A stretch of DNA of 64,000 nucleotides from Tricharina praecox (lineage: Eukaryota). The DNA lies in contig NW_026250403.1 in the NCBI RefSeq assembly GCF_024521635.1, positions 1,984,001 to 2,048,000 on the forward strand, in the 5' to 3' direction. How positions within the stretch are numbered: position 1 is the first letter of the stretch; every line of letters begins with the position of its first letter. Shown here in pieces: positions 3,133 through 47,037 of the stretch. The notes beneath the pieces were generated by a model. That model ran no database searches and was not told the origin of the DNA. It worked only from the letters and a program-made list of their open reading frames with translations. The position numbers and the translations under genes are program-made.

Positions 3133-6081
3133 CTAAACGCGACTCGCGCCCCTAGAGGTCTTTCCCTTCGCGCAGTCATTACAATACCACTTCGCCTTAC
3201 CCCTAGGGGCCTGAGAGAGGCCGACACAGCTAAGATGGAACCACTCGCGCTCGCACTCGTCGCCATCGCAGGCGACCATCTCTCCGTAGCTGATCTGATT
3301 GCAGTAGCAATACGTTTCCTCGCCCTCCTCCTCGTCGTCGCCCGTCTCCGCCCCCGCCGTTTCCTTCTCTTTCGTTTTCGTTGTGGAGGCGGAGGTGGAG
3401 GTGGCAGCGGTAGAGGCGGTGGTGGAGACGGTGGTGGCGGTGGTGATCCCAAGGCCGATGGGTGTGGAGGCTGCTGCGGCGGCGGCTGCGGCCACCGGCT
3501 TTTGCTGGCTCTTCGCCTTGTGGCTCTTCTTGGCCGGGGCGGGAGTGGAGGCGGCAGCAGCGGCAACAGCGGTGGCGGATGAGTCCGCGCGCTTGCGGTT
3601 GCGGGTGCTGCCGGGAGTGACGGTGGTGGATGCGGCCGTCTTGAGTTCGCCCGAGGAGGCGGCGGGCTTGGACTTGGTGTTGGCCACGGGCTCCTCTTTC
3701 TCCTTCTTTGGTGGGGGAACGATGGGAGAGCCCTTCTTTATTTGTGGCTCCTCGACGGCGGCGGCAATCGCAGGGGAAACAACAGATGTAGGCGTGGCGT
3801 CGGGGGAAAGTATCCGCTGCTTCTTTTTGTGGGAGGGTTTTGTAGGGGGCGGGGGAGGCGGGGGCGGGGGTGGAGGTATGGGATGCGGATGTGCGGTGTG
3901 TTCCTTCTCCAGTTTTGGGGATTCCCGTTCTTTTTCCTTTTCTTTGCTTGCGATGACCTCGAGGTATCGAGGGGCGGGGGGCATCTCCACATCTTCTGGT
4001 TCCGCCGCCACGGGCTTGGGGGTTTCTTTTTTGGCATGGGATTTGCTGGGGGCGATGGGAGTGGTGGAAGGAAGTGCAGGAGTTGAAGTCAGTGCAGCAG
4101 CCGGTATGGGAGGGGCCGGGAAATGGGAAGTGATGTGCAGTGGTGAGGTGATGGTAGCCACCGCTATTGGCTGGATATGGGGATGCGGGATGACAGGCTG
4201 GCCCAGGAGCGGCGAGTTTGTGGCCGAGGCCGTCGGGGTTTGGGCGGTCCTGTCAATCAGATGGTTGCGTTAGCCTGTGTTCGCACAAGGCAAGTGGGGG
4301 CCGGAAAGCAACCGCAATAGCTAAAAACAAAGAGACTAATTCCAGGAACGGGACTCGACGGGCGAAGGGTATGGACCAGAGAGTGACGGACGGTGCAGAC
4401 GGTGCAGATGTGTGTGTAAAACCGCCCATTGTTCTGTCCCCAATGGCTAAGTACCTGAACGAATATCATCTCGCACCCTACCTGTCCACTCCCTCCAATG
4501 AAAAACAAAGCTCAAAGATGAAAAACAATATACTGAGAAAACAAATATTTCGCGGGCAAACGCCATCCTAACCCAACTCCACGCACATAGTACAGTCCCA
4601 AGAAACGCAACCAGAAAAACCATTACCGGGATATCGAGACCGCAGAAACCAAAGACCAGACCAGCCAGCCAGACCAGACTCCTCGAAACGCAAGACAATG
4701 TTGGACGAACTGGAACTTGAAGAAGACACGGATACAGAAGCTGATATGAAAAAAGATGAAGAAGAAAAAAAGAATGAAAGAAGGAAATGACGGATGAATG
4801 TTCGAAAAGAAAAAAGAAAAAGTAAATGCTCATGCCGGCACGCTGACGCCCAATGCTAAGTAAAGTAGGCACGTAATGAAGAAACGAACGTAGAAAAGAA
4901 AAGAAAAGACAACTCTGGACTGGAAGGAAAGAGTACTACCTTCGGGGAGCCCTCTGTGCAACAGTCTTGACCTTCTTCGGCACTGGTGTTCCCGCCCTCG
5001 GACTCGCCGTGCCTTTCGCGTTCGTGGCCTTCTCCTTATCCTCCTTGGTAGCGGCAGCCTTCCTCTTCTTGGTAGCCTGCTGCTGTTGCGCGCCCGCCTG
5101 CTGGTCCGCGATCCGCTTGGTACTACTGAGCGTCTCGTTATCACCAGTTTTCCTAGCCTTCTTCTTCGGTTCGGTGGGCTCGTCCTGGTGTTGATGGTGC
5201 GCGTAATGGTGGTGCGACTTGCCGGCGCGGCCAGGTACAGCTCCACGCACGTGACTCTCACGCTCCATCTGGATCTGGTGGTATCTTTCCTCCTGCTCCC
5301 TCTTCTCCCTCTCCTTCTCCCTGGCGATCTGCGCAGCGGTGCCCCTCTTCATGGGTTCCTTGTAGGCCCAGTGCTCGGGGTTACCCTTGCGGTAGAGCGA
5401 CGGGATCTCCTTCTCGACGTAGGCAAACGCGTGTTCGACACGTCCGAGGTGCTTGTTTAGCGCATCGACGGCAGTGGTGATGACGTGAATCTTCTCGTCC
5501 TGCGTTATCAACAGATCGGCAATCTGCCCCCTAATCTGGTGACACCTCGCCCTCCTAGTCTCCGCGGTCCCCAGAATCGTAGTCCCCGCAGCCGTAGCTG
5601 CCGTCTCCGCGGCTTCCAGCTTCTCCAACTCAGCCAGGAGCGCGACCGACGGGGGATCCGCCGCGAGCCCACCCTGGTCATTATCGCGTCGCTGTCTCAG
5701 CTCATTAAGCTGTTTCAGCGCCTCCATGGCCTCGTCGAACTCGTACGGATCCCCGGGAGTATCGAGCCTCTCCGCGGCGTCGATGAGCAAGCGCAGGTTC
5801 GCCTCGGGCAGACACGCCTTCGCGTCGACCTCGCGCAGCAGCGTGAAGTGCCGGATGATCTCTGACGGTAGCGCGTCGACCGCATCCGTGAACGCCGCGA
5901 GCGCGGGGTAGAAGTTCGCTGGTGGGTGGTGCTGCCCCGAGGATTCGATCCCGTTGATCACCGGCTTCGGCGCGGGCTTACGCGCGGACCGCGCTTGTCG
6001 CAGTGGTTGCCGGCGTGAGATCGAGGGGACTCCAGCGGTAGCTGGCGATGCAGCTGGCTGGGGCGGCGGCTTCGTCGCCAT
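3133..6081 (-). CDS. PHO23: ING-family chromatin protein (N-terminal ING domain + C-terminal PHD finger), Pho23-like; 2 exons (6081-4940, 4249-3133), 752 aa
   Basis: Exon 1 has the ING N-terminal signature DAVDALPSEIIRHFTLLREVDAK and QDEKIHVITTAVDALNKH. Exon 2 ends in an ING-type PHD (ETYCYCNQISYGEMVACDGDECEREWFHLSCVGL...KWYCNDC). Intron 4939-4250 has donor AG|GTAGTA, branch GCTAAC and acceptor GACAG, and joins in frame (AG+G=Arg). Pho23 rather than another ING paralog is an inference. Confidence 0.88.
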
Positions 6082-6937
6082 GTTGCGTGATGTATGGGTG
6101 GGTGGAAGAGGAGGGGAGGGGGAGGAGAGAGGTGTTCTTGACGAGTTCGGCGTTGCGTGAGGGCGGGATCAGAGGGTCATGCCCCTAAAGATTACCGGCT
6201 GTGCGAGGTAGGGTAGAGCAAAAGAGGGATGCTTATAGATGCGTTTTTCGTGAAGGGAGTGATTTCTGTAGACCTAGCTGTGTGGGATGACAATAAAGCA
6301 AATGGTTGTTGACGGACGCGAAAATGAAGGCGCTCAAAGCATGCTGGAAAGTTGGGTTTCGTGATTCTCAGCAGCAGCGTTGGGCCGAAGGTGGCCGCCA
6401 AAACCACGCTAACTTACGATAAGTAAGAGTTTCATAGTCTTGGCGCGAGTGATACGACGAGATTGCACGCAACAATTCTTCACACGTTCCCAAATTGACT
6501 AGTTACAGATACACCACATGGCTACAGCAAGGATCTCATTCGAATGTCCAATCCTGATTATCGGAAAGCAGCATGTATTCCATGTCCGGCGCCCAGTCCA
6601 ATAGCAGCCCGGAAAACTCGAAAGTAACACCTTCTTCCGAGACACACTGGAAAGAAGAAAGTAGAGCGAAACCTGGATCGAACGACGTGAAAACAAGGTG
6701 CGGAAGCAGGGTCCTAATGAATAGATCTCACACGAGCTCCCACAATAGTAATAGCAGCAGAAACAGAAGCCCCCCCTATTAACCGTGATCTCTGACGCAG
6801 ACCACATCCCATCTCAACCAAACAGCCAACCATCGGAAACACCCGAGCGAATCGGCGCATTAAACCGCATATCTAACCTTCCTCCTCCCCCAAATCGATG
6901 TCTTCTTATTCTTGGCATCCTGCTTATTGGGGGGTTC

Positions 6938-9295
6938 CTAATCCACCTTCGCATTCGCAAGAATCCTAATAACCTGTCAGCCCTGGAATAGATAGGAAGA
7001 GAATGTGAAAACTGGCATACCTGGCCGTATTACTGGTAAGGTTGTTTGACAGCCTGATGTTGGTCTGCGAGTACTTCTTGGTGTGCTTCAACTTCTTGCG
7101 AGCAACCATCACCGGAACGGAGCTCTTAGCCACAAGGTAATTGGAGAAACTGCCCAAGAGAACACTTTGATGATGTCAGCACACATTGCAATCACTATCA
7201 CCAGCTCCACGCCGACCGCATCCCTGGAGAAACTCACCCCTTCAGAGCACTTCTGCCTCTCGATCCTAGTATAACCAGGGTTGGCGCAACCAGGTCAATC
7301 TGTGCATTTCATGATTAGTCAAAAGTATGATACCAACCGACTGTGGATAGAAAACTCACGATCTCAGTCAAAAGATGTTTCGGGCTCTTGCAATGAATAA
7401 CCTCGACAACAACCTTCACCTGCAGTCTGGTCTTCCTAAGCAGCTTGGTGACCAATGACGTGATAGCTTCGGCGGCGACGAATCTCTCCCTCTCCGCTTT
7501 TGTCCGCTCCCCGACACCCCCGACGCCCCCGACGCCCGGGTCCTTTAGTGGACTGCTAGTTCCGGGTGAATGGATTTGTCCGACAGGCGGTGTTAAAGTA
7601 CCGACCGCTGCCGCCTGGGCTTGGTTACTAACTTCCAACAGCGCCTCACCGATCGAGCTCTCCGACACTGTCTTGGACCCATCTTCTATGGCATCGTGAT
7701 CCACCGCACATATCGCGAGTAGCGTATCACCATCTCGTAGAACCGTACCGACAGTCCACTCCATAGCATACTGTGCTTCAGAAGAAAGATCTGTAGCAAC
7801 AAGGTACTTTCTGGAGCGTTTCCCTTTCGCAGCGAGCTCCTTCTGGATATCCTCGTAGTCCCCGCGTACTATTGTGCGAACAACCCTGTGCGTTTCGGGC
7901 GACGAGAATAGCGGAGTGAGTGTTGTTTCCATGCGCTGGGCTCGGCGGATGTCAATGTCATCAGCCTCCTGGTCCGAGGACACAGGAGTGCTCGTCTGTG
8001 ACGGTACATCGAAATTAGTGCTGGGGTGCACTCCGGATCGACGTGCGGTGGTAGGAGAACTGGCTCCTGGGTAATTCGAGGGCGTGACTGAGATTTGAGG
8101 AAGAAGGGAACGAACTTGGTATTTCGATGAAACCTTTTTGCCTGCCAAACACATATCATGGTCAGTACGTTTGAAATGCCGGATATGGGGAAGGAGGATC
8201 CGTACGTTCTTCCTCCGCCGCGGCGAGAAGACTGAAAGACTTCTTGCCGGCTGGCGTGCCCTTCTGGGCAGCCTTTTTGCCTTTCTTCTTCTTCTTTCCG
8301 CCACCTGGGTCGACGCCAACATTGCTTTCCCTGTCGGTGCTATTTCCGCGACTGCTAGGTTCCGAAGCCAGTTCGATCAGAGACGGCGCCTTTCGGGCCA
8401 CGCGCTCGCCGGACCTTCCGCGATTCTCCTCATCACTGTATGACCCGCCACTATCCTCTTCTTCCGAAGACTCGTCGTCAGTGGAATCCACGATCGCCCT
8501 CTCATCCGACTCAAGATCCTTCTGTAGCCGCACGCCACCATCCCGAGTTAAGCTCTCCCCGGTTCCGGCCTTTACGACGTCGCCCTGCTTGTCCGTCACC
8601 GGTCTCCTCTCCGGTAGCTTCGCCAGCGCACCTCCGGATTTCGCTAGCGCATCGTCGTTCAATCTCGCGTACGCGGTATCCAGATCAATCACCGTCCCCT
8701 TCTCACTAACAAGGACGTGCGGCTCGTTCGGACGGTTCGGAGACGCGACACGGCCCGTGGAAGAGGCCCCCGGCGAAGCTGCTCGGCCATGATGCGAGAA
8801 CATGGAATTTGCAAGTGGCGATTTCGATCGCCCTGGGAACACCGCATCGAGCATCGAGGGTTGCGACGCGGTCCGTTTTCTGGTTCCGGAGCCACCCACC
8901 GAAGGTGCCATTGAGAAATCATAGGCATCGTTTGGCGTGTGAGCATTCGGTACACTGGATCGTCCCAGTAATCGTGGTGGGCCATTATTATTATTGCTAC
9001 CCGAGCGGGTGCGGTAGAAACCGTTCGATGAACCCCCGAGGTCGACTGGGCTCGAGCGCCCGCTGCTCATGGGCGTACCGCCCCGGTGCTGGAAGTCGGC
9101 GACGGAATCGATCAAGGAGGTTACGGGACGGTGGGGAGAGGTGGTTCGTGCAAGCGATGAGAATCCCATCCGCGGGGAGGATGGAGTGGATTGGACTCCC
9201 GAGTGAGGCGAGTTGCGATTCGTGCGCTGCTGGGGTCGTTCCAAGAGCTTAAGGATCTCGAGGCGCTCCTCCTCTAGAGCTGATTCGAGCGACAT
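6938..9295 (-). CDS. Fungal universal stress protein (Usp-domain) family protein; 5 exons (9295-8206, 8141-7360, 7299-7238, 7164-7021, 6965-6938), 701 aa
   Basis: Starts MSLESALEEERLEILKLLE. Usp motifs are KYLVATDLSSEAQYAMEWTVGTVLRDGDTL and IDLVAPTLVILGSRGRSALKGVLLGSFSNYLVAKSSVPVMVARKKL. Four 55-73-nt introns with branch sites join in frame. Ends ILANAKVD*. Confidence 0.92.
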
Positions 9296-18000: not shown

Positions 18001-19428
18001 GCCGGTGGACTTGACGAAACTGGAGAAACAGCACAGCAAAAGAAGGAAGACTTGAAAGAACAGAGCGATAAGATCATTGCCAACACGCCTCCAAACACCG
18101 ATTACCCTAGCGGAATCCTGTATATCGGGATCCAGCAGATCGTGGGGCTTGAAGTGGAGAGGGTAAGGGATTCGGGTGTCAAAGAGGCAGAGGACGAGGA
18201 GGGCGAAGATCTCCCTAGCGCTTATTGCACAGCTATCATCAATCACGAGAAGGTGTACAAGACGCGGACGAAGCTGAAGGATAACAAGCCTTTCGTATGT
18301 ATTCCGCTTCCCAGCCTCGTTCCAGCGATGAAGGTCTAACACTACCAACAGTTTGATGCCAGTGTAGAGCGCTTCATCCGTGACTTCCGAACAACGACAC
18401 TCATCATTTCGGTTCGAGACCACCGTCCCCATGAAGCCGACCCGCTCTTGGGAGTTGTCGTCCTACCGCTCGATCGCATCTTCGCATCTGGTTCACAGGT
18501 GGTGCAATCCTTCCCGCTCGTCGGGGGTATCGGATACGGCCGAGTTCGTCTCTGTTTAATCTTCCGCAGCGTCTACCTCCGATTACCGCCGCCATTGATG
18601 GGCTGGAGCACGGGCACACTTGAAGTCTCGCCGCACGCCTCCGCCTCCGAAGGACTTCCTCAAGACCTTGCCCAATGCCGCCTCGTCTTCCGCACTCTCT
18701 ACAGCAAACACAAGATGTTCCCAAACTCGGACGCACCCAGGGAGTGGAGCCGGAAGCGCCGCGATCGTTCGCTCCACCTTGCCGTGTGTAAACGTTATGC
18801 CTCTTGTCTCCTCGTCCAGTTCCGAAAGTACTCTCTCGGACCCGACACGACGCCCGCGTTCGCCGTGCTGTGGCTCAAAGACATTGCCGACGACGACGAG
18901 GTCGAGCTCGAGCTGCCGGTGCGAAAGGGCCACCTAAAGCGGGCCGTCAAAAACGCCGACAACGAAGGGGAGCAAGTGGGCGTGTTGAAAGTCCGGGTGA
19001 AGTTCTGGCCCGGCCTCAGCGGGTACCACCAACACATGGCCGCGGCGAACACGAACATGGCGGATGTCATGCAGGTGCTCGAGGCGGCCGAGGACGCCAA
19101 AGCCGTGGAGGGGTACCACTCCGAGACATCGTCCTCGTCGGACTCCTCGGACGACGACGAAGACGCCTACAACGACGCAAAAAGGGACAACGCCGACCAC
19201 GATGACGGAAAACGCGGGCTGACCGATGAACTGAAGGACTATAAATGCAATCGCAAAGACATGCACCGCCGACACCGCGGGCTGATGCAGTTCCGGACGG
19301 CGAGGCAGGTCGCCTGGATGGGACATAAGGTCGAGGAGAAGTCCCATGAGCTCGGCGATAATCTCAAGTCGAGGTTGAAACATCGGGGGAGAGCGGCCGA
19401 CGCCCAAAAAGTCGAGACGGAGGTTTAA
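15058..19428 (+). CDS. mug190: SMP (synaptotagmin-like lipid transfer) + C2 domain membrane protein, Mug190/tricalbin-like; 5 exons (15058-15729, 15792-16645, 17369-17478, 17735-18294, 18352-19428), 1090 aa
   Basis: N-terminal REVTDPVTHL motif and two hydrophobic TM segments. SMP start PESAAWVNSLLSSLWPIVNPALFNSIADMLEDAMQASLPK. C2 motifs GDPYVAIGWGKWGK-MWSTRII...PVWDET...LQLWDSDRTTADDLLG and DLPSAYCTAIINHEKVYKTRTK. C-terminal HRRHRGLMQF. All junctions are in frame; the first donor (GTGGGA) is weak. Confidence 0.88.
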
Positions 19429-29337: not shown

Positions 29338-30377
29338 CTATTCTTCGCGGACTCTGTTGCATCCATCAGCTGCTGCTTCACATAACCATCCGTGCAGAGG
29401 GAGGGGTACGAACCGGTACACATATTTCGTAGCACTCGCTTTGCCCTCGCTCAGCAGTTTCATTCCCTTATCGACGCCCTCGAGCCCGCCCTCAATGATG
29501 GTCTGCGGGTGTCCGGAGAACCTTCCATCCGCCATCGCCCTCGCAAAGAACCTAAACATGGCATGTCCAAAATCCATCGCATCCGGCGCCACCGGCATTC
29601 CGGCGGGGCCGGACGTGGCCTTGTGCACTGCCGAAACCATCACAACCTTCATCTCGACATCCTCGGGGAAGTCCGTGTACTCCTTCCCAGGGAGCACGGT
29701 AACGATCGTACATCCCGGCTTCGCGAGCACCTCGCCCAGTGTGGTGTACGACTCGGTCTCCGAGATCGCGTCGATAGCGTGGTAGCACTTCTCGCCGCCG
29801 AGGGCCTCACGCAGCGCAGCGGCCACGTTCCCCTCGCGGTAATCAACGATCTTGTCTGGGCCGAGCGACTTTACGTAGGGGATGCCGCTGCCAGCCACGG
29901 CAATGATCGGGCCGATATTCGCCAGCTTGGCAAGCTTGATAGCGAACGCGCCGACGGCGGTGGAGCCGCCGTAGATGATGAGCGGGATGCGCTTCGTGGC
30001 TGGCTTCCACGGCGTGGGCAGGCCGAGCTCGATGTGCAGCGCGAGCGCGCTCGTCATCGCCGCTAGCGGCACCGTTGCCGCTTCCTCGAAACTCGTCGTC
30101 GACGCGATGTGGAACGTCGTGTGCGCCGGCGCGATCGCGTACTCCGCGTAGCTGCCGTGCGGCTGCATCATCTCGTGGAAGGCCGCGACGCGGTCGCCTT
30201 TCTTGAATCTGGAGGCGGTCAGCCAGAAGAGCGTGGGAGGTGCGGGAGGTGCGGGAGGATAGGCTCACTCGTAGACGTCGGCGCCAACCGCTTCGACGTA
30301 GCCCGCGATGTCGTCGCCTTGGTTCAGTTCTACGCCGTATGCGGGGAGCTGGTCTGTTATTTTCTGGATGGATGCCG

Positions 30378-30636: not shown

Positions 30637-31845
30637 TATGTGATATGGTAGTGGTGTGTATGTATGTGTATAGGGACTTCGATGATCGAGTGAATGTCTA
30701 TATAGGTACCTCGACTCGCGAGCGCGGGAGGCATAGATGCCGGAACACTAATTTTTCAAGCTAACTATGACGTATTTCGGCGATTTCAAAGCAAGTAACA
30801 CATGGATACTTTTTCTCGGAACTCCGGTGACAGGTATGAGGTCGGTTGTAGGTATTCCGGATCAAAGATGGGAGCTGAGCTGACGAGCTGGATTGCGAAA
30901 ATTGTTGTGTATATACGCTGGGACAGTGGGTTTCTCGCGATGTACGACGTGGGAGTCAATGGTTGTAGAAGACATAGCAACAAGTAAATGCGATTGATTA
31001 GTGATCTTGTGCTATTCATTAGTTCTCAAATACCATTCTACTCGTCCTACCAACTCATTCCATGATCTATCAGTGTTATTCTCCTTCACCCACGAAGGAA
31101 GTATGGTATGGATGCACCAACTTGACAACTTCAAGCCCCCCTCCGAGTCGGAGAAATTCCTCATCCGATGATTCGAAATCGGCGGGCAGCGGGCTTGGAT
31201 CTCGGGTCCTGGCCTTTCAGCTTCGCTTCGACCAGTTTCCTCAACGACCTAACCAGATGGAACTCAGCTTCGCGTACCGACTTATCGGTGAGATGAGCAC
31301 ATATGGCCTTTCGGTGTTCCCAGAACGGAACGGATTAATCAGTGTGGCGAACTCCATCTCGCGTTATATAGGGTACATATGCCGTCTTCTCGAGTTTCGA
31401 CCATTGATATGTATAACTAGGATATCTGTAGTAGATACTGTCTGCAGTACAGCAGAAGTGCCTCGGCATCGAATACCCACGCCTCTGCTCTACCAGGTAC
31501 CTACCTGTAGATCATAGAGTAGGTACCTACATGATGCACTGCGCCCCGCACTTGCGGATACATATCCGGATTCCGGATTCCGGAACTTAATTGAGAATTC
31601 GAGGTGGACATCAGTTCTCCCATCCGCGAATCGGAAATTGGGAATTGGAAATCGGAAATCAGATCTTCTTCTAGAGTCGTAAGACAGCTTGGACAGCTTA
31701 GATAGCTTGGACAGCTTGGAAAGGTACTGTGGGTTCGTGCTAACAACCTAAAGGCTAACACATCATTCATGTTATGTTTCTTGCGAAGAGCAACTGTGCC
31801 GGCGACGTGATCGTTCGTGATCCAATTGTACTACCTACCAGGTAG

Positions 31846-31892
31846 AGAGAGAGAGAGAGATCTTCAATTTATTTTGCATGCAGAAAGATGAA
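31846..31892 (-). mobile_element. 47-bp 3'-terminal stub of a non-LTR retrotransposon with 13-bp target-site duplication
   Basis: (GA)n-GATCTTCAATTTATTTTGCATGCAG resembles the type-A LINE tails at 43258 and 43804. It is flanked by the perfect direct repeat ACCTACCAGGTAG at 31833-31845 and 31893-31905. Confidence 0.75.
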
Positions 31893-34800
31893 ACCTACCA
31901 GGTAGGTAGATAGTACATACGCGTCGAGGTTGATGTATCATACCCAATACTTTTCGGTTTGGTCGTGCAGACGTTCGTGAGGTAGAGAAGATCACTGCCC
32001 TATTCTCGGAGCCGCCTTTGAGAAGATATTACCTACACATTTGGTCCGGCGACAAGAGGTTGAACGGCTGGCCGCATCTTATTTTTCCGATATTCATCTC
32101 AACTTTTTCTGCGTGGAGGATATCGCGGCCACACATCACACATCCGGACTGAATAACTACCGACTTCTTCTCCGGACTCGCGGCGGAGAGTTGGAGTGTT
32201 GGTTGGTGTTTTTTTCGTCGACACCGGCCCGAACACATTGATGAGAGGGTGTGTTTTTCCGTCTTGAGGGATAGCCGGATCACGATATTTTGCTCGGGGG
32301 CGATGAAGAGGACGGGAGGGGGTTTTCCACGGGCTTATGCGGGATCCAGGGGGGCACAGGAGGTTTGGTATCACGTTATGTAGAGTACTCTATGTATTTA
32401 TGTACGGGCGGCGAGTTGTCCAATGTTGATTCTTTCTTCACGGAGCGATTGTAGGTAAACCAAGTGCGGTATGAAAGAGAGTGTGCGGTGTTGAGCTTCA
32501 TGCATACCTAGAATAGGTATCGTTACTGGTATTGCTGTACATAACTTAATACATAGAACGGTGTACAATGTGCATACGTCGGGGTCCCTGAAAAGCTGTG
32601 AGCCTGCTGTGTTGGATATTCCGAAGCCTGGCCTGGACGCTTTTGGTCATAGCCCATGAGCCCGGCGAACGGTAGCAATTGGCGAAGAATTTCAAAATCC
32701 GGGAATATAAAGCTGCAGGAGGTCAGTTGCGGAAGAAGCACCAAGTCTTGGGGTGCCAGGGTTTGCAGAACTATCGTTTTGTTCAAGCTTCTCCGCGTTT
32801 TGGCTATTCGCTTCAGCCTTCGGGGACTTGGCACGGAGATTCGAATCCACCGATTGTCCATTGCTCCAATTCACCCGTGGCCGGCTTGGTCAGTGGCGTT
32901 TGAGAATCGGACCTTTCAAGGAGCACCGGACTAGAGACGTGCATCCATTAGTATCACTTTAAAGCCGTGAGAGAGTCAGCGGACCACCTATTGCACCCCG
33001 ATCACTCGCGTCAAGCAAGCCACCAAACGAAGCCAATGCTCATTACATAGTGCGTCGGCTTCGAGTATGTGACACACCCAAAAGCATACAAGAAACACTA
33101 TCCACCTGTAATCTGCTATACACGCTTACCAAGCCGGTTTGGGGATTGGTGGGTTAATTCCGGAGAACGCCACTTTGCTGAAAATCGGAGACTCCGTTAT
33201 ATATTGCAAATGTGGTCCGTGGACGAGCAATACGTATGTAAGTACGGAAACATCGTCGCAGAGAGCCATCCTCGAGTGAGAGAGAGAAGCAAGAGAGAAC
33301 GCCACGACGAAGATCGCAATGATGGCTGCCCTGACGCCGATAGTACCAGTACGTATGATGACTGCCCCTGCCGACGCCGATCATTCCGCTACTAGAGTAG
33401 CTGTGATTTAGCCGAATGCTAACTCGATATCGGAAGCGCTGATAGAGTGTGTTTCGTTTCTATCGCGCGAGTCCCGCCCCGTCCCCCCTGCCAATTGCCT
33501 TCGGCGCCACAAGTCATCTCTATCCTTGAAGAGTGGCAAAGTTAGCGTCTTGGACTGCCCGTGTGGTCTTACCTAGACCGTGATAGATGTTGGAGGGACA
33601 GCCACATGGGAGGATTCTTTTGTTTTTTCAGTTTCTTCAGATTGCGTACGGCATATAGGTATCGAATCTATAGATCACGGCAAATTCATAATCCTATCTG
33701 CAGTGCAGTTCGGATGCATACCAGCTCGATGCAACGATCTGGAGTATTTCTCCGCCACCACTTATGCACACATGGCCAAGATGGCGCCAATGAAAATGCG
33801 AGATCAGGTCATATGGGTTGAGCAGGAACGGCGGCGGGTTTTTTCCCCATCATACGATCGCGAGTGAATCATGGACATTTACTCGCCTATACACATTCGG
33901 TCTAGTGCTAGTTACTCGGATGATGTTCACTCACTAGCAGGATCAAACATCGCACCACACAGCCGATCTCAGAACGTATGGTACACAGCGGGAGGTGCCT
34001 TATGCAGTGGAGGTACTATGCTTTACCTACTCTATCTAAGCTTTAATAAACTCCCATTCCGCATGAGATGCATTCGTACGTACATATCATACTGTGCAGC
34101 TGGCGAAAATGGGTAACTGTGTGTGTTTGATGGTGACAGGAAGACGGCGGGAACCGAAAGCAAACGAAAGCCTTGATCTCGCAGGTCTTCCGTCTTCCGT
34201 TACGACGGTGAAACCTGCGAGAATCGCGGAGATTTCTCCGGAAGTAGAAGGCATTCACCGTGGATGGCTGACACCGACGCTCCGTACTTTGGAGTTCTTC
34301 ACGAACTCCAGGCCATCGTTTCCTGGGATGATGGAAGAACCCGCGCCTCCCACGTGGGAATCCCTCGCCAAGGGCGGTGCTGAGCCAATCAGTGCCGTCC
34401 CATCAGTGCCACGCTTTCGACATGGCCTTAGTCGAAGCCGCTCTTGACAGGGGCGCTGCTTGCCATCGACAATCGAGAGCATCTCGAGCGTCTCCTGCAG
34501 AGATCTTGAATCGCCATCCGTTCCACATGTAACTTTGTAGTCTACTACGTATTTGCAACTACCGCTAGTGTGTAGCTTGGTACTGGCCATAGGGATCCGA
34601 GCGGCGGCGGTGGCGGGCGGTGGCAAGACTTTTCGGCAAAGAAGAATCCACCGAAAATCCACAAGTCGTTACACCACTACCAAGTACTCTGGATACATGC
34701 ATACATAATGGCAGCGCCGAAACGTCTGGCCCCTCCCCCCAAGCAATCGGTGGCTCGGCCGCTTCGCAGCTAATGGAACCGCCAATCGTAAGCAGGCTTG

Positions 34801-38853: not shown

Positions 38854-40425
38854 ATGACGACACTCTCGACAATAACCGCGTTGGCGACGGCGGCAGCGAC
38901 AGCAACGATATCAACATCTGATGCCGCCAAAAAGGCTGCGTTGGAAGCGGCCCTGGCCGCAGGACACAAGGCTGCGATCGACCTCCGGATCGAAGCCTGG
39001 ATATTGCTCGCTGTGGCGTGGGTCTTCATCATCTTCAGGACCATTGGGCGTTTCATCTCCGTGCCGATATCAAAGTTCGAGATCGACGATTATCTGATGT
39101 TATTTGCGGGAGTGAGTTTTGCGCGCACCCAAAAACACACACAGCTGTTTCACTATCCGATGCTTGTTCTGACAGCAGTATGTTTAGCTTGTATATACGA
39201 CGGAAACAACACAGATCCATTTCATTGCGGGATTGGGCGGATCCAACAACATGCCCCCCGAGATACGAGCCAGCAGGAATCCCGAGCAGATCGCGGACCA
39301 CGTCACTGCTTCGAAGCTGTTCATCTCCGGATGGGTGGAGTACGGTTTAACCGTGTGGTTGATGAAGACCTGTATGTTCCCGCCCGATTCAATCATGCAT
39401 GCCCTTTTCCAATCACTGGAACTGACCGGTGCCTACTTTGTCCCTAGGCATGTGCTTCTTCTTCAAGCGCCTGTTTCAAGGCTTGACGGACGCGCAAAGG
39501 AAAGTCCGCATCGCCCTCTGGATGGTGTGCATCACGTATGTGATCGTTTTCATCACCACCATGTGCGAGTGCGTTCCTTTCCATAAGAACTGGCAGGTCG
39601 TTCCGGATCCAGGGTGTAAGTTGTCCCTCAATATCCCGACCTCTTGAAATGGCCTATCCTTTATTGACTTGAGTCTCTTCCGAAGCGAGTTGTACCCAAG
39701 GACTTGCCAAGCATATCGTCATCTTGATCCTCAACGTTGCGACGGACGTCTACCTCATCAGCATCCCGCTTCCAATCTTCATCCAATCCACCATGCCTTT
39801 CCACAGGAAAGTCATCATCACGCTCCTTTTCGGAGCCGGAATCTTCGTGACGGTCGCCGCCATCCTCAGATCCGCGTTCGTCTTCCAGGATTTGTATTCC
39901 AGCACCCTCATGGCCCAATGGGCAGTCCGAGAGAGTTGCGTTGGCTTCCTCGTCAACAATGCGCCCATGATGATGCCCGTCTTCGTCCAGCTCCGCCGGT
40001 TCTTCTTTGGCGATGCGAAGCCGAGCCCCTTCTCGACGAAGGATGTCATCAACTCGATCTATTCGCGCTCCGGAAACAGCGCTGCGAAGCGCAAGAAGCA
40101 GCAGAAGGACCAGTTCATGTCCACGATCGGCGACGCCGATGAGGAAATCTCGCTCGACGAGAACCCCAAGTCGCGCCACGGTCACCACAAGAGCGAATCC
40201 GCCGAGTCGATAAATCCGGGCATCCGAGTGGATGTGGAGGTTCAGCTGCAATATAACGAGCTCCAAGCCGAGCAAGAGGTCAAGAACAACTCGAAAAAAA
40301 GGAGGGAGATGGAGAGAATGACGAGTGGTCATTTAGCTGGGAAGGACAAGGGAAACTACGTGGCCACCATCGGCGGCCCGCCGAGCCGAGATAATAGATT
40401 CGGGGGGTCACCTTCCGGATCGTGA
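38854..40425 (+). CDS. PTH11-like (fungal rhodopsin-domain) integral membrane protein without CFEM; 4 exons (38854-39111, 39188-39371, 39448-39615, 39686-40425), 449 aa
   Basis: Motifs RIEAWILLAVAWVFIIFRTIGR...DDYLM, VWLMKTCMCFFFKRL, CVPFHKNWQVVPDPGSSC, LNVATDVYLISIPLP, RKVIITLLFGAGIFVTVAAILR and WAVRESCVGFLVNNAP. About 7 hydrophobic segments; junctions in frame. Confidence 0.9.
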
Positions 40426-42018
40426 TTGCTGGGCAGATGATTGTTGTTTAATGTGTTTCGGCTGCGTATTTTGTTCGTTTTTTTGGTTTATCGGTCGCAT
40501 TCCGTTGATACCCGGGGGTTCTTTTAAAGCCATTTCTTTTTCCTGATAGAGGTTTTTCTTTATGGTCCTAATTCTTAGGGCACAGTACGGCTGGGGGGAT
40601 GTGAATATGTGAGCATACCTAGATGAACTATGCATGTAAATAAATGCAATTTTATTGAAGACATCTTTCGTATTACAATAGCTGGTTGAGTAGGCCCACC
40701 GATTATCGACGTCCTAGAAGGTACCGCGCAGGTCGGAGATGTTGGAGAGTCGAGGCAACCGAGGTAGCTTGCTGCTGCCGTTCCATGGCTACTAGCTACG
40801 CGGCTGTGTATTCTCATTCGCGGTTCCGGATCGTATACCAAAGCGACTTACGTGAACTACCTGTTGCTACATGTATGTACCATCGATCATAGCACAGCCT
40901 GTCACTCTGCTTCAATAGCCAGCGGCCTGTGGCTCCGTGCACCATTCAGTGGTAATAGTAATCGTGAAGACGGAATAGAAGGGGTACACGGGTGACGATT
41001 CTTTTTGTTTCTTTTCTTAATTCATGATTTTGCACTCGTCTGTTTTTATATCATGATTCATGACGAGCGGCAACATCCCATCTACTAGCAGTCCCGCTCA
41101 TCCATTTCGTCCAAGCCACTGGTGACATTAGGTCAGCCGAAGCGCCGATGTCCCCACCGAAGTGAATGTGACATAAGTGAGCGGAAAGAAAAGTGGTATG
41201 TACTCGCCTTTTTCCTCATAGTCTTCCACGTCGTTTCTATACTGATCGATATTGGAGAGGGGAATAAATTCCCACCGGGTCAGGTCATGTGCATTTAGAA
41301 TGTCATTAACGGTCTGTGGGAATGAGAGTGTGGTATGGCCCACTATCCGTTTTGTCAAGATTAGACGTCCGGAAGGCTCTAGAAGACTCACGATCCCAAT
41401 GGCTCCACCTAATCACGCGGCGCGGACCGTGCTCGTCTCACAAGCCGAAGGACCTGAGTATCTCCTACGTAAGAGTATTCTGCCTTGGACGAGACGAACG
41501 TGTATATAGAGGGCCTCTCTGGTCCGACGAGAAGTAGAGAATCAACCGAACATTGTGTATCTATCTATCCATCCCTATCTCTATCTTCTATATTCTTGAT
41601 ATGTATGGTATAAGTACGGTCAAAGTTACGTATTTTGACCGTACTGATACGGAAAAAAGCGTATCTCCCCCCCCCCCTCCTTCACTATACAGTAATTAGG
41701 GTCTTAACCCCCCCAAATGTGGACGAGTGATGGAGGAGCTGTCGGCTAAAATCCGGGTCGAGCAAGCGGGCAGGAGAGAGATCACGTGGGGAGGAGAGAG
41801 ACTTATATAGGTTCCGTGGGTTTTCTTCTTCTTTCTTGGTCATCATCTGTCGAATACCTAGACGGTCAACCCCCCCATCCACTCTCTCGTCTGTATGTCC
41901 TCCCCCATCATTCAACCACTCTGGAGCCCGGTACTCAGAACGCGCATCTAACCACCTGGAAGACCTTCGCTTCAGATTCGAGACTCCGCCACTACCAAAC
42001 ACCTCCGACAATAAAACC

Positions 42019-42861
42019 ATGTCGTTCGCCACCACCCCCGCAGCGAAGGACACCAAGTTGCAGATTGCGGGCATCAAGAAGTTCGACGGTAATAACTACG
42101 AGCGGTGGATCTTCGATGTCAAGCTCGTTCTCCAGTACAACATGGCCTGGAACATCACCATCGGCATTGAGACCGAACCCGATGGACGGCCTATTTTACT
42201 ATCGGCGCCTGCCTTTGAGGATGAAAAGACTGCCAACGTCCTATCGAGCACGCCAACGGCGGAATGGCTTTCATGGTTAAACCACAAGGACTTTGAAAAG
42301 TCTACAATCACGATGGCTATGGAGCGCCATTTCTAGATGAAGTTCAAGGCCTACGAAGAGCCGCATGAGCTGTGGGAAACGATCAAGATAGACCAGGCCG
42401 CCAAGATGGGGAACAATGCCTACGAGATTCGTAATGAGCTCAACGAAATACGCCTCTCGGATGTGGGAAGTGTGCGAGTCTACGCACAGCAGATCCAGCA
42501 TGATGTGGGCCGATTCAATCTCCTCGCAAAGGAAGAGAATGAAAATATTTCGAATTAAGAGCACTCATTTTACCTACTACGCGGGATCGATGCGGAGGCT
42601 CCTGATTGAAAACGTACTGTTAAGCAGATCCAGGAGCTGTTTATATTAGAATCTTTGGATAGAAAGCCCAACGAGGTTCTACGCATGTTGCTCGTCCGAG
42701 AGACCGAGGTGCAGAAGAAGCTCCAGATTCCTGCAGGTAAGTCCGTTTACAACAAGGGCAACAAAAGACCGAGGCACGGTCACACCACGTGGAACAATAA
42801 GAAGTGCACATACTGTCATCAGGATGGCCATGACGTGTCTGAGTGCTTCCGTCAGAAGTGA
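42019..42861 (+). pseudogene. Inactivated Ty1/copia-type gag with CCHC zinc knuckle (LTR retrotransposon relic)
   Basis: One frame runs from ATG 42019, with KFDGNNYERWIFDVKLVL, PHELWETIK and CTYCHQDGHDVSEC (CX2CX4HX4C). It is interrupted by TAG 42334, TAA 42556 and TGA 42607, with no frameshift. No pol ORF follows. Confidence 0.78.
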
Positions 42862-43257
42862 GGTCACCCCCCGGGTTACAACCATCAGGCTTGAAACGGA
42901 TGAGATGATCGGATTTGGACGGCTGCTGGCTAAGATAGTGGGGGGATGCTTTCAAGACACGAGGAACCTAAAAATCAAAGACGACTCGTTCACCATAGGT
43001 ATTCTCTTCCCCTTCTCTTCTTCCCTTCCAGCAGTACTAACCCAACCTTCCCATCAGCATACAACCCATATATCTAAGTCACAACTGTCTGCTTTTTCGT
43101 CCTCTTCATAATTGTGCCCTCACTTCAAACTACGAAATTTTGAAGAGATGATCACAAGTTTTCTTGACGCTTCTTTGAGTGCTTTTGCCTTTGTAGTGCC
43201 ATGTGACCGAGTATCCTGTAGCTCCGTTCTCCAGCCGGGACTGATACCTCCAACGAG

Positions 43258-43741
43258 AGAGAGAGAGATAGAGAGAGATCTTCCTGTTTTATTTCGCATG
43301 CAGCCTATCTAGACTATGGCGAACCAACGAACTCCTTTTTCTGCCCGTCTTGGCCAGTCGAGGTGAAAGCCCCGGTACCGGCCAGTCCGATGCGGCGCCC
43401 CACTTCCCCTGCCCATTCGCCTCGGGCCGGCACAAGCAAAAGTAGAAGGCAGGTTGACAGTAAAGACCGGTATGGGCCTATATGCCCGCTCCTCCTGCTA
43501 CCCCCTCGCTTCCCTCCCCGTCTTCCGCCTTTCCGCTCTATGAAGATATCACCGCATATTCTCATCTCCTACTTCCTCGCACCGACCACAGACACAGTAC
43601 CCTGCTGGGCACTCTTGCTCTGCCCCCGATGCGATGCTTGCCTCCTCCTCATCCTCCTCCTCCAGGTCTGGTGGAGCTTTCCTCCCCACATCTGTCGTTC
43701 CTAGAAACTCTAAGATTGCCTCGCTGCACCGCTCATCGGCG
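43258..43741 (-). mobile_element. 5'-truncated LINE (non-LTR retrotransposon) 3' end, tail type A
   Basis: The minus strand encodes ADERCSEAILEFLGTTDVGRK, paralogous to the C-terminus in 43864-44781. A 3' UTR follows, ending TCTAGATAGGCTGCATGCGAAATAAAACAGGAAGATC(TC)n. Confidence 0.8.
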
Positions 43742-43753
43742 ACTTCCAACGAG

Positions 43754-43791
43754 TGCTTTGTTCATTCATTGATTGCATGCGACCTACCTAG
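43754..43791 (-). mobile_element. 38-bp LINE 3' stub, tail type B
   Basis: TTGATTGCATGCGACCTACCTAGA matches the tail of the long fragment (TTGATTGCATGCGACCTATCTAGA, ~43889-43912). Bounded by ACTTCCAACG repeats. Confidence 0.7.
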
Positions 43792-43803
43792 ACTTCCAAC
43801 GGG

Positions 43804-43851
43804 AGAGAGGGAGAGATCTTCCTGTATTATTTCGCATGCAGCCTATCTAAG
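43804..43851 (-). mobile_element. 48-bp LINE 3' stub, tail type A
   Basis: GAGAGATCTTCCTGTATTATTTCGCATGCAGCCTATCTAA is a near copy of the tail at ~43273-43312. Bounded by the 12-bp repeats. Confidence 0.75.
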
Positions 43852-43863
43852 ACTTCTAACGAG

Positions 43864-44781
43864 TTCTTCTTTTTTTTTTGCTCAGTCGTTGATTGCATGC
43901 GACCTATCTAGATCATGGTAATATCATCTACACGTGCACCCCCCTCCCCCCCAGTTTCCACGCCACTGTCCAACCCAGCTTTCGTCAGGCGGCCCGATGG
44001 GGCTTCCCCTACCCTCCGCCCCGGCCGTTCCCAAAGATATGTCTCCGCCGTTCGCACTCGCACACGCGCCCTCGAGTCGTCCGCGCACCCGCACTCATCC
44101 CCGCGCCCTCGAGTCGTCCGCGCACCCGCACTCATCCCCGCGCCCTCGCACTCACTCCCGCGCCCTCGAGTCTTCCCACCTCTACCGCAACTTTCTAGTC
44201 CGCTATTCTGCGTCGCTGAGATCCTCAGCCTCAGCGCCCTCCTCCCCCCCGTCTTCGGCACCCTCCTCCGCCTCCTCGAGTCGCCTCAGCTCCGCTCTCT
44301 CTTCCCGCTCCCTGAGCTTCCACTCGGATGCCTCACTTACTGCATCTTCCTCATCGGCCTCTGGCATTCGTCTGCCCATATCGGTGGTAGAGAGGAACTC
44401 TAGGATGGCCTTGCTGCATCGCTCGTCTGCGAAGAGGTCCCGTATTTTGAAGCGGTCTTTGCCCCTCCTTGTCTGCCTCCGAACTTCTGCCCAGAGTGTC
44501 TTTTGCTGGCTTTTCCATTCAGGGCAGTTTTTGAAGAGGTGCTCCCGAGTCTGTGTCTTGCAGCGGCACTAGCTGCAGCGGGCATCCGGGCGGCTTTTGG
44601 TCCACTGGAGGTACTGGCCGGTGAGGCAGTGTCCTGTCTTGAGTTGGTAGAATCTCGAGGCGAGGCGCTTGGGGGCCGTCTCCGGATTTAGGTCAGGACG
44701 CTGGCCGGATTTCCGACTGTACCGATACTTCTTAGGAGTGATTCGGTTGTCCGCCCATCCTTGGCTTCTCTCCACTTGGCG
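43864..44781 (-). mobile_element. 5'-truncated LINE 3' end (ORF2 C-terminal Cys/His region + 3' UTR), tail type B
   Basis: The minus strand reads KRLASRFYQLKTGHCLTGQYLQWTKSRPDARCS*CRCKTQTREHLFKNCPEWK...RFKIRDLFADERCSKAILEFLSTTDMGRR. This is the zinc-finger-like C-terminus typical of fungal LINE ORF2. The 3' UTR contains a ~38-bp tandem repeat (~44065-44175). Confidence 0.88.
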
Positions 44782-47037
44782 ACTTCCAATGAGTTCTGTC
44801 AGCTCTCCTAAAACGCATAATCTTTCGAGTGAGAGATTATGATAGATCGCGGGGGGAAAAAAGTAATTTCGAGCCTCCCTGATGCCAGCGCGACATCTAT
44901 GCGCATAATGGACGCATTGTGGCAGATCTTCTAGATTTACGGCCGCATAAGAGCATATGCCCGAAGGGAGCGGCACGGTCAACTCCGTGGCTCAGTTGAA
45001 TGAACGAAACGTAAGCCCGTGTCTCGCGAGCGTGTCACCAATGAAGCGAGCGCCTTCCACGTGACCTACGGCAAAAGCACTCATGCTTTAGTTTCTTGGC
45101 GAGAACGCCGACGAAAGCTTTCCTTCGATCCTTCTACCACTCCACTGCTATCGCCGTCGCCGGCATATCCAGAAATTGAAAATGACAGGCTGGCCGATTG
45201 CCGCTCCCAAACCTCAAACTTCGTTGTCACCACTACCTACAGCGGGCAACATGACAGCAGAACAAAATATGATGGCGTGGTGCTGCAAGTACACTACATG
45301 CTTAATGTACTCGTTTCGCATTCAGAGCACCCAAAAAGCAAATGCTTGGAGCTGACGATTCGGCCTTACTGATCCAGCACTCACTTACGACCACCGGATC
45401 TATACTAGTTGGAGAACAGCACATACTGATCCATTTATCGACGGCAAGTAACTAAGCTCCACCCCTAACCTAGACGAATTGCTTGTTTTTCGAGCGAGAA
45501 GCAATGTCCAGACGCATCCATTCGCACGCCGACGGTCCATCTATAATCACTCGTTCCACAGATGTCACGGATAGCTCTGTCGGATTTCACTTGACCAACA
45601 CCAAATCCATTCAACTCCCCTCGTCTCCTATCGTCCAGACCAAAGAGAAAGGCGGCGCTGGAGCCCCCGGTTTTCCATTGGACGCGCGCCGCGATCAGTG
45701 TGTTCAGGATTGCCCGGGACTGTCCAGGAGAGCAACAAGAGAGCAACAAGAGAATGGGATGCCCATCCCCTGCGTTCCAGTTACCCCTCCGAATGCCTAG
45801 TCAGTTGCCCCGTGCGGACATGCTTTTTTTTAAGACCATACTGGGATATCCCTGGTTGCGGTTGATAGCAATATGGGCCCCCCAAGCCTTGGTTAACTTT
45901 CGAGCGGCCCAATGTTTGGCCTCTGTTATGCGCGGGAGACGCCCGGCATCATAATTACCTGCGATCGGGATTGCGCCCTGGGGACGGCACTGCTGCAGGG
46001 CAAGGTTCGATCCCAGCAACCTGGTGCTCGGGGGTCGCTCAACGTCGCCATCTCGTTGGCGAAGGAAAGCGTGTGAGTTGCTCAAGCACCGATGAGGTTT
46101 CTCCGGATCGATACTAGCCATAATCAGAGAGTCAATGCCAGCGCATGCATCGGCGAGATGTAGAGATGTTGGTGGCTGAAGGGTAGCCAACGTCGCGGCG
46201 GGGGTTCCTCTCTCAGCTTGTATCGAGGGTGGGGCCCGACTTTACCGCCGACTCTGGTAAATAAACCGAAGGTGGCTATCGGATATGTGATTCGACTGAG
46301 CGGTCCGTCGGCACGTGCAAAAAATGACAATGTGACTCTGCCCCGCACTCGTCAGACGTCCCATGACAGCTCCGTGGCCGGCGAATCGACAAGCACCCCG
46401 CCGTGCAGGCTGTTGGAACGGTGCTCCAGCCGGCTTCACCGGTGCTGAATAAGAGTTAGATCGAGAGCGACACGGTAGAACGGTGTGGGCTTTCGTGAAA
46501 CATGTGTACACTGTTTTAAGCAGGTCGAGCCAGTCCGGCGCGCATCGACTGCCCGCCGGAGGGAAGACGTCGCTGCATTTCGGTCTGCTGAGGTTAGGCT
46601 CGTTGCATCGAACGGAAACGGAAAATTTTCGGCTGGGAACATGCCTCATATGTACCGTCTTGCTTCCACGCAGCGGATGCATTTGCCGAGGGGGTGTCGA
46701 CGGCGCGGGAGTGGGTATAAAGCACTCACTACCCCCCTGGGGGAGACATTCACCAGTCGCCCCAGTCCACTCGTTCCGATTTCCCCTCACCACACCAGGA
46801 AACGTGACCTAGACACCATGCGGACTGCCGATCTCGGGAAAAGGCTTGGTGCGATTCTGCAGGGGTCTGGTGGAGCGGTCTTTCGGGGGGGAACAGCTTC
46901 GCTCTAAGACATGCAGAGGTATAACATCACACACACGCGCACACGGACGGACGCAGCACAGAAGCTGCCCCTGGCGATAAGCCGGAGACACAGACAGACA
47001 AGACACTACCTGCTACACATACACTGACACACGACAC

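Follow-up and report, generated by a model that had tools for sequence, protein, structure and literature searches.

In target-primed reverse transcription (TPRT), a nick primes complementary DNA (cDNA) synthesis on the 3′ end of an RNA, the cDNA joins the other end of the target and the stagger is copied as a target site duplication (TSD). Target site triplication is said to have been described genome-wide for Alu by Lee et al. in 2015. Here, we examine an array at positions 43246..44793 of a 64,000-nt stretch of Tricharina praecox (Eukaryota) DNA—NCBI RefSeq assembly GCF_024521635.1, contig NW_026250403.1, positions 1,984,001 to 2,048,000 of the forward strand, hereafter the window—in which four truncated ends of long interspersed nuclear elements (LINEs) from two families, A and B, lie between five copies of one 12-bp TSD. 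The layout itself is already known from target site triplication of Alu and small nucleolar RNA (snoRNA) retrocopies, from R1 arrays and from jockey dimers.

Target site triplication was named by Weber, who left open whether the L1 machinery may remain in place and take up a second RNA or whether independent hits fall on a marked site (Weber, 2006; PMC1687206; this and the following papers are cited for particular passages). For R1 in 28S ribosomal DNA, a 14-bp TSD lies between copies, a new copy is placed 5′ of an older one and two lineages may share an array (Stage & Eickbush, 2009; PMC2718515). Drosophila tandem dimers such as jockey have been explained by insertion-site preference, with the argument that tandems should hardly ever be seen in a family that inserts at random (McGurk & Barbash, 2018; PMC5932611). 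MINE and tripartite chimeras have been described for the Magnaporthe LINE MGL (Gogvadze et al., 2007; PMC2104539), two-RNA insertions within one TSD pair for human L1 (PMC11702581), and template jumping and non-templated addition in vitro for L1 ORF2p (PMC10830420). Joining and sealing of the second end by LINEs is nonetheless unsettled, and tandems with a shared TSD have in print been ascribed to target preference or had their timing left open. We give a probability of roughly 0.6 to the reading that the T. praecox array is the footprint of repeated TPRT at one still-open break, with a new RNA in each cycle.

Read from the window sequence, the array consists of five motif copies and four inserts in the family order A, B, A, B (Table 1), all of them 5′-truncated LINE ends that run tail-first on the plus strand and so place the elements on the minus strand. 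An earlier note on this DNA, made from its letters alone, had described this arrangement; its positions, letters, insert sizes, strand and A/B alternation all hold, as do the short microhomologies (2-4 nt with the TSD) at the truncation of both stubs. With at most one mismatch allowed, the motif matched exactly five times in the window, whereas 100 shuffles gave a mean of 0.21 and never five. The exact motif was without a match in 274 of 283 fetched loci and the remaining nine all overlap the array site; because it is confined to such loci, it is target DNA rather than part of an element, which settles the earlier note’s question of whether it might belong to the elements’ own termini. The motif is the regenerated TSD of a single-copy site and belongs to neither element: both array flanks are single-copy in the genome, and other A and B copies elsewhere are flanked by their own distinct TSDs. 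TSD copies 1-5 differ from their majority sequence at 1, 0, 1, 1 and 1 positions, with no difference common to two copies. The base before the motif is G at copies 2-5 and T at copy 1, and copy 4 has TTCT in common with the right flank; these two features indicate that the duplicated stretch is 12-17 bp long and varies by cycle.

The array site is the longest of eleven shared-TSD stacks among the resolved sites of this 38.4-Mb, 104-contig assembly. A first set of 192 loci gave 212 tails (124 A, 88 B), 206 of which were scored; a TSD was found at the element end in 111, against 6 in a shifted control. Manual curation removed 19 of these 111 rows (self-matches, simple or tandem repeats, weak 9-mers and second rows of one stack), leaving 92 rows for 91 resolved sites: 82 solo insertions, eight stacks (the array site, L037, L045, L056, L076, L094, L116 and L153) and L110, described below. 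L056 was counted as solo at first and is included in the target logo. For a replicate set, a prediction of 5-10% was noted before fetching; the set took in another 63 loci together with one stretch of the window, with 40 of 88 planned extra places covered, and added 63 tails. From these came 27 TSD rows (control 0) and 25 sites, three of them stacks (L256, L264 and L260, the last spotted by eye on a 9-nt match). Leaving the array site aside, 10 of 114 resolved sites are stacked (8.8%, 95% interval 4.3-15.5%), or 10 of 115 counting L110. The scan for further multi-tail stacks that the earlier note had proposed thus turned up ten, each with its own TSD, and its presentation of the array as something special or of a new kind falls away, the layout and the idea of machinery that stays in place being already in print in the passages of Weber cited above (PMC1687206).

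Each of the ten other stacks has two inserts between three copies of its TSD, and all eleven are head-to-tail. Inserts range from 33 to 918 bp, and at least six stacks mix families or subfamilies (the array site, L094, L116, L153, L260 and L264). The two stubs of the array are of ordinary size, since among 65 solo inserts picked by pattern 22 measure ≤70 bp. Elsewhere, second RNA ends are joined without a TSD copy: L110 (G000:C21:362483-366483, 1170-1310 +) holds two stubs within one TSD pair, separated by a 12-nt non-TSD linker, and at the inner junction of L045 (1430-1480, minus strand) a second LINE tail follows a 45-nt non-TSD linker that matched itself alone in a genome search. These two junctions suggest that the enzymes can switch RNA within one event.

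Other candidates were rejected as stacks: L006 and L020 (extra match unrelated to the tail), L123 (target within a tandem repeat), L144 (G000:C29:132237-136237, 1090-1400 minus; three A stubs duplicated as a unit together with flank and a (GTGA)n repeat, another way of making a tandem) and eight loci with adjacent tails but no visible shared TSD (L042, L003, L012, L127, L134, L139, L261 and L270). A B stub also abuts L042 on the left, again without a shared TSD, and L042 and L044 (G000:C8), each an A stub, resemble one another in their right flanks and may be paralogous sites or copies of a small stub-carrying repeat. Two-tail pattern scans, which do not amount to a census, found the array site alone at a gap of 30-60 nt and nothing at 60-90 nt, where A-A pairs only were sought.

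Sequence preference does not explain this re-use. Base counts over 83 reconstructed targets are flat and show no consensus (≤0.18 bits at nearly all positions), the exceptions being the tail-microhomology base of A (0.52 bits) and one position in the 28 B sites (0.35 bits); the raised base beside the (GA)n tail appears to reflect microhomology. The eleven stacks carry eleven different TSDs, and with neither a common TSD nor a target consensus, preference for a sequence cannot account for what is seen. The earlier note had reached the same view of strict specificity from a single stub at 31846 with a different 13-bp TSD (Table 1). No transfer RNA (tRNA) gene was found at the nine stack or chimera loci scanned, two of 51 solo loci had one, and Rfam gave no match in the window and eight loci, the three replicate stacks lying outside both scans. 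Assuming 600-2000 earlier insertions and 10-100% of the genome accessible, the chance of priming ≤4 nt from an old nick is 7e-5 to 2e-3 (0.2% or rarer). Near the 82 solo sites, another tail lies ≤600 nt outside the TSD pair at three loci and abuts the pair at none, so stacks are not simply broad hot regions. Flat logo, differing TSDs, low re-hit chance and lack of abutting tails together tie re-use to the exact break rather than to sequence or region. With a restart rate of 4-10% and ~500 sites, 0.03-0.5 four-insert stacks are expected, which makes a single such site plausible.

Tail patterns matched the genome 248 times for family A (≤1 mismatch; control 1) and 74 times for family B (exact; control 0), and the coding parts of the two are ~62% identical. 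The B copy L002 encodes RNase_H (E 1.6e-14), longer B copies carry a C-x2-C-x7-H-x4-C motif and the reverse transcriptase (RT) portion was matched at L212. RNase H after RT, a C-terminal cysteine motif, simple-repeat 3′ tails, 5′ truncation and TSDs of 9-19 bp (mode 14, 83 sites; ~10-20 bp being typical) are those of LINEs of the apurinic/apyrimidinic endonuclease (APE) type. Both families are putatively Tad1-like (fungal Tad1-type LINE). P0002, the full-length relative closest to them, shares 59% identity with family B and has an APE endonuclease (PF14529, PF03372), RT, RNase H and the C-terminal cysteine motif. No endonuclease domain was matched in the assembly and the 36 best scored places are all truncated, with no full-length A or B copy among them, so the families look extinct or unassembled there.

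Three further observations concern the elements themselves. Despite their divergence elsewhere, A and B have a near-identical 3′ untranslated region (UTR) motif (window 43296-43311 and 43895-43912), a candidate common recognition signal; single-sequence folds gave no hairpin common to the two RNA ends. Truncation lengths of solo A copies cluster near 50-67 and 130-155 bp at many loci, which suggests RT stall points in the 3′ UTR. Finally, 140 RT matches at many contig ends and in clusters (C10, C28, C39, C61), many in intact frames of 1273-1442 aa, apparently belong to a young long terminal repeat (LTR) retrotransposon family, unlike the all-truncated LINEs.

Table 1. Features of the shared-TSD array, with a solo stub for comparison (window coordinates; ORF2, second open reading frame).
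Feature	Position	Strand	Remarks
TSD copy 1	43246..43257	none	Joined to original left flank, which is single-copy; would be the end of the first primer strand
Insert 1, family A LINE 3′ end, 484 bp	43258..43741	-	(GA)n tail, 3′ UTR, last ORF2 codons; tblastn match to P0002 residues 1225-1247
TSD copy 2	43742..43753	none	Identical to majority sequence; X1 contig bridges with 0 differences
Insert 2, family B stub, 38 bp	43754..43791	-	GA microhomology at truncation
TSD copy 3	43792..43803	none	Motif match; contig-bridged
Insert 3, family A stub, 48 bp	43804..43851	-	3-4 nt microhomology at truncation
TSD copy 4	43852..43863	none	Match to copy 5 runs to 17 bp, including 4 nt of right flank
Insert 4, family B LINE 3′ end, 918 bp	43864..44781	-	T-rich tail, 3′ UTR, decayed ORF2 C-terminus with C-x2-C-x7-H-x4-C; 61% identity to P0002 residues 1118-1262
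TSD copy 5	44782..44793	none	Joined to original right flank; X3 contig bridges with 0 differences
Solo family A stub (comparison)	31846-31892	-	Between its own 13-bp TSD copies, 31833-31845 and 31893-31905

The 3′ UTR of insert 4 contains a 37-bp tandem expansion (window 44044-44176), in a stretch that is variable among other B copies. Directly left of the array lies a decayed, presumably Copia-like gag remnant (window 42000-42900, +) with stops and a C-x2-C-x4-H-x4-C zinc knuckle, which had no Pfam match. Ordinary fungal genes of the window (39673-40422, 3136-6168, 7318-8376, 18340-19425 and 29341-30264) encode a fungal rhodopsin domain, ING/PHD, Usp, Mug190 C2 and a zinc-binding dehydrogenase; the rhodopsin-domain and Mug190-like genes identify the host as a fungus.

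On the favoured reading of repeated priming, a LINE endonuclease would nick a site of no particular sequence, and the RT would copy the 3′ end of a first RNA, fall off early, join the opposite target end and copy the 12-17 nt stagger, thereby restoring a free 3′ end at the original nick or a few bases beyond. Before sealing, this restored end could prime on another LINE RNA of the same or the sister family and the cycle would repeat, each round adding one truncated insert and one TSD copy in constant orientation, the new piece 5′ of the previous one in the element sense. The plus strand of the array is the first cDNA strand, and the copying enzyme was presumably a LINE RT. A second cycle would occur at about 1 site in 11 to 1 in 20, with four cycles at the array site, and the product would be inert debris.

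Coupled re-priming is the best reading because the layout of a double insertion is present—the same TSD stands between and around all inserts, and differing truncations, the ~62% identity of A and B and the differing B tails speak for separate RNA templates from two LINE families—but the target preference that would bring independent insertions together is absent from the logo over 83 sites. If the nick stays open, inserts should share one orientation, TSD copies should outnumber inserts by one, templates should be contemporaneous and may be mixed, and stacks should become scarcer as they lengthen; all of this is seen. Inserts 1 and 4, with private differences in 13/482 columns (2.7%) and 24/907 columns (2.6%), are of equal age, as are the two of L045 (4.1% and 4.7%), and the TSD copies of the array have no derived change in common. 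We infer from this that the cycles were coupled in time; of the two histories that the earlier note had offered, repeated hits by two families or successive prime/abort cycles, the cycles fit better, with their timing unproven.

Several observations weigh against this reading. The joint of left and right flank that an empty allele would show was not found, among the rows listed, in contigs of four public runs, and when metagenome contigs were screened with a 21-nt flank for alleles with fewer inserts, one match turned up, by chance; with no empty or partial allele seen, order and timing of the inserts are unproven. The age comparison is weak, since all solo copies lie within 0-6.5% and equal ages are also likely if independent insertions fell in one burst. 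The five TSD copies of the array have diverged at 4/60 positions, more than solo TSD pairs (31/1161 positions, in a set biased to good matches). The 30-nt logo is blind to a 60-90 nt preference or to a structural target. Before curation, a TSD row was obtained for only 138 of the 269 tails scored. A site with two tails is also more readily sampled, which overstates the stack rate by as much as a factor of two; ~5-9% of resolved sites is perhaps nearer the truth. Nor are stack inserts significantly shorter than solos (≤70 bp: 10/18 vs 22/65, p = 0.11).

The edges of the TSD copies also tell partly against coupling. In 4 of 11 stacks (the array site, L037, L076 and L260) a later copy takes in 2-4 nt more of the right flank, and in L094 it is shorter; in 5 of 11 (the array site, L037, L045, L056 and L094) the later copy has the base left of copy 2 rather than that of copy 1, while five stacks are without such carry-over and L264 leans the opposite way. 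These shifts indicate that the target had already been altered by the first cycle, and a new cut made in a completed insertion would explain this no less well. They support a left-to-right order of the pieces, and either a short-lived intermediate or a finished insertion could have altered the target. Any single case is weak evidence, given that solo junctions often carry non-templated bases (24 of 60 resolved; 22 unresolved).

The principal alternative is later, independent re-insertion, in which the TSD copy of a finished insertion is preferred by subsequent elements through a non-sequence mark such as DNA shape, chromatin or a tethering protein. Reuse of marked sites of this kind has been proposed for R1 arrays, jockey dimers and Alu or snoRNA triplications, and the stacks have the geometry and polarity reported in the cited passages on R1 tandems (PMC2718515) and jockey dimers (PMC5932611). 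The variable TSD edges and the first-junction base carried by later copies in 5 of 11 stacks are what fresh cuts would leave, and within the motif copy 1 is the odd one in L056 and L264. A regional mark should, however, also produce near-misses and opposite orientations, and no tail abuts a TSD pair at the 82 solo sites; there is no target consensus, the flanks are single-copy, the stack or chimera loci scanned lack tRNA genes and Rfam matches, and the TSD copies of the array share no derived changes. We regard re-insertion as unlikely, if a serious competitor to repeated priming.

An improbable history starts from a duplicated A-B unit, as raised in the earlier note, or from unequal exchange between TSDs, with later deletions shortening two of the inserts. 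It would account for the A-B-A-B alternation, for two A tails that differ by only 1/36 nt and for stubs that end with microhomology to the TSD; bivalve TSD-(SINE-TSD)n arrays of near-identical short interspersed nuclear element (SINE) units have been ascribed to unequal exchange (PMC11481361, in the passages cited), and L144 does resemble a unit duplication including flank. The two B tails, however, differ at 4/32 nt, with 47 of 87 other B tails nearer to the stub than its partner is, and the 918-bp copy has a variant found in other B copies. The A tails are no nearer each other than many unrelated copies (18 of 122 are closer to insert 1 and 26 equally close). Both deletions would need to stop exactly at a TSD edge. 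Stubs of such size are common among solos, and B/A and A1/A2 dimers (L094, L116, L153 and L264) cannot arise in this way.

An array of clustered regularly interspaced short palindromic repeats (CRISPR) has one conserved repeat of ~23-47 nt and spacers of near-constant length. The T. praecox array has in common with it only the layout—repeat-insert-repeat, polarised, with inserts from mobile RNA—as the earlier note had said, and nothing supports that note’s further suggestion that it records retroelement RNAs. A functional CRISPR-like record that feeds host silencing is very improbable: the repeat is 12 bp, the array’s inserts run from 38 to 918 bp and those of all stacks from 33 bp upwards, every stack has its own repeat, repeats have decayed as neutral DNA would (4 changes in 60 nt) and match no Rfam family, and hundreds of solo copies already provide the same sequence. 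Among 21 window open reading frames (of 134 listed) scanned with Pfam, there was no cas-like domain and no adjacent acquisition or effector gene, the neighbours being the decayed gag and ordinary fungal genes. Least credible of all is an assembly artefact, a concern of the earlier note for which the contigs of the four public runs show no sign: although no single contig among those listed bridges the whole 1.55 kb and the best-matching run may be the source sample of the assembly, four of the five TSD copies are bridged without differences (X1 contig, 43683-43930, TSD copies 2-4 and both stubs; X3 contig, 44695-44845, TSD copy 5), the L076 stack junction is likewise present in X1, and the five TSD copies each differ, unlike the product of a collapsed or repeated assembly.

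This genome removes preference as an explanation of shared-TSD tandems, since its LINEs have no consensus target and yet re-use, exact to the nucleotide, affects ~5-9% of resolved sites. Coupled cycles would mean that after first-strand joining the nick persists for long enough to serve as a primer once more, that breaks or enzymes are common to sister LINE families, and that tallies of insertion events based on tails are slightly too high. A wider proposal, which we hold tentatively and at a little under even odds, is that these fungal LINEs routinely run several cycles per unsealed nick (about once in 11-20 events), take sister-family RNAs in trans and duplicate the target each time, building a polarised array without target preference in a manner mechanically like spacer acquisition, so that each stack would be a snapshot of LINE RNAs together in one nucleus; for one system, this would answer whether target-site triplications arise in a single episode. 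The array provides no evidence for a new immune system; it does show one route by which tandem repeats can be seeded.

No fungal shared-TSD stack was found in the literature searched, which included few subscription papers, and an earlier report of such rates is possible. The two families resemble fungal Tad1-type LINEs in their simple-repeat tails and 10-20 bp TSDs and, through the relative P0002, in domain content; they depart from them in that the assembly yielded no full-length or endonuclease-bearing copy. As in MGL and L1 chimeras, a LINE RT would have joined several RNAs in one insertion event, but there the RNAs are fused directly within one TSD pair, whereas a TSD copy stands at every inner junction of the array; L110 and the inner L045 junction alone resemble MINE or U6-L1 template-switch chimeras. 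Like jockey dimers as described in the passages cited (PMC5932611), the stacks are tail-to-internal tandems with distinct 5′ truncations and a TSD retained at the junction, and unlike them they are common and mix families with no detectable preference. With R1 arrays they have in common copies divided by the TSD, a newer copy probably at the 5′ side and two lineages in one array, yet R1 is strictly site-specific in a multicopy target, while the array target is single-copy and the target differs at every stack. A close parallel is the snoRNA retroposon with a SINE reported by Weber (2006; PMC1687206, as cited), where two different RNAs lie in tandem between three copies of one 13-16 bp TSD. L1 triplication can draw on a reusable TT/AAAA target preference of which A and B show none. 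What is new here is a fungal LINE system without target preference, mixed families and four cycles: unlike L1-mobilised triplications, the templates are LINE 3′ ends, the stacks occupy ~5-9% of resolved sites and one site carries five TSD copies.

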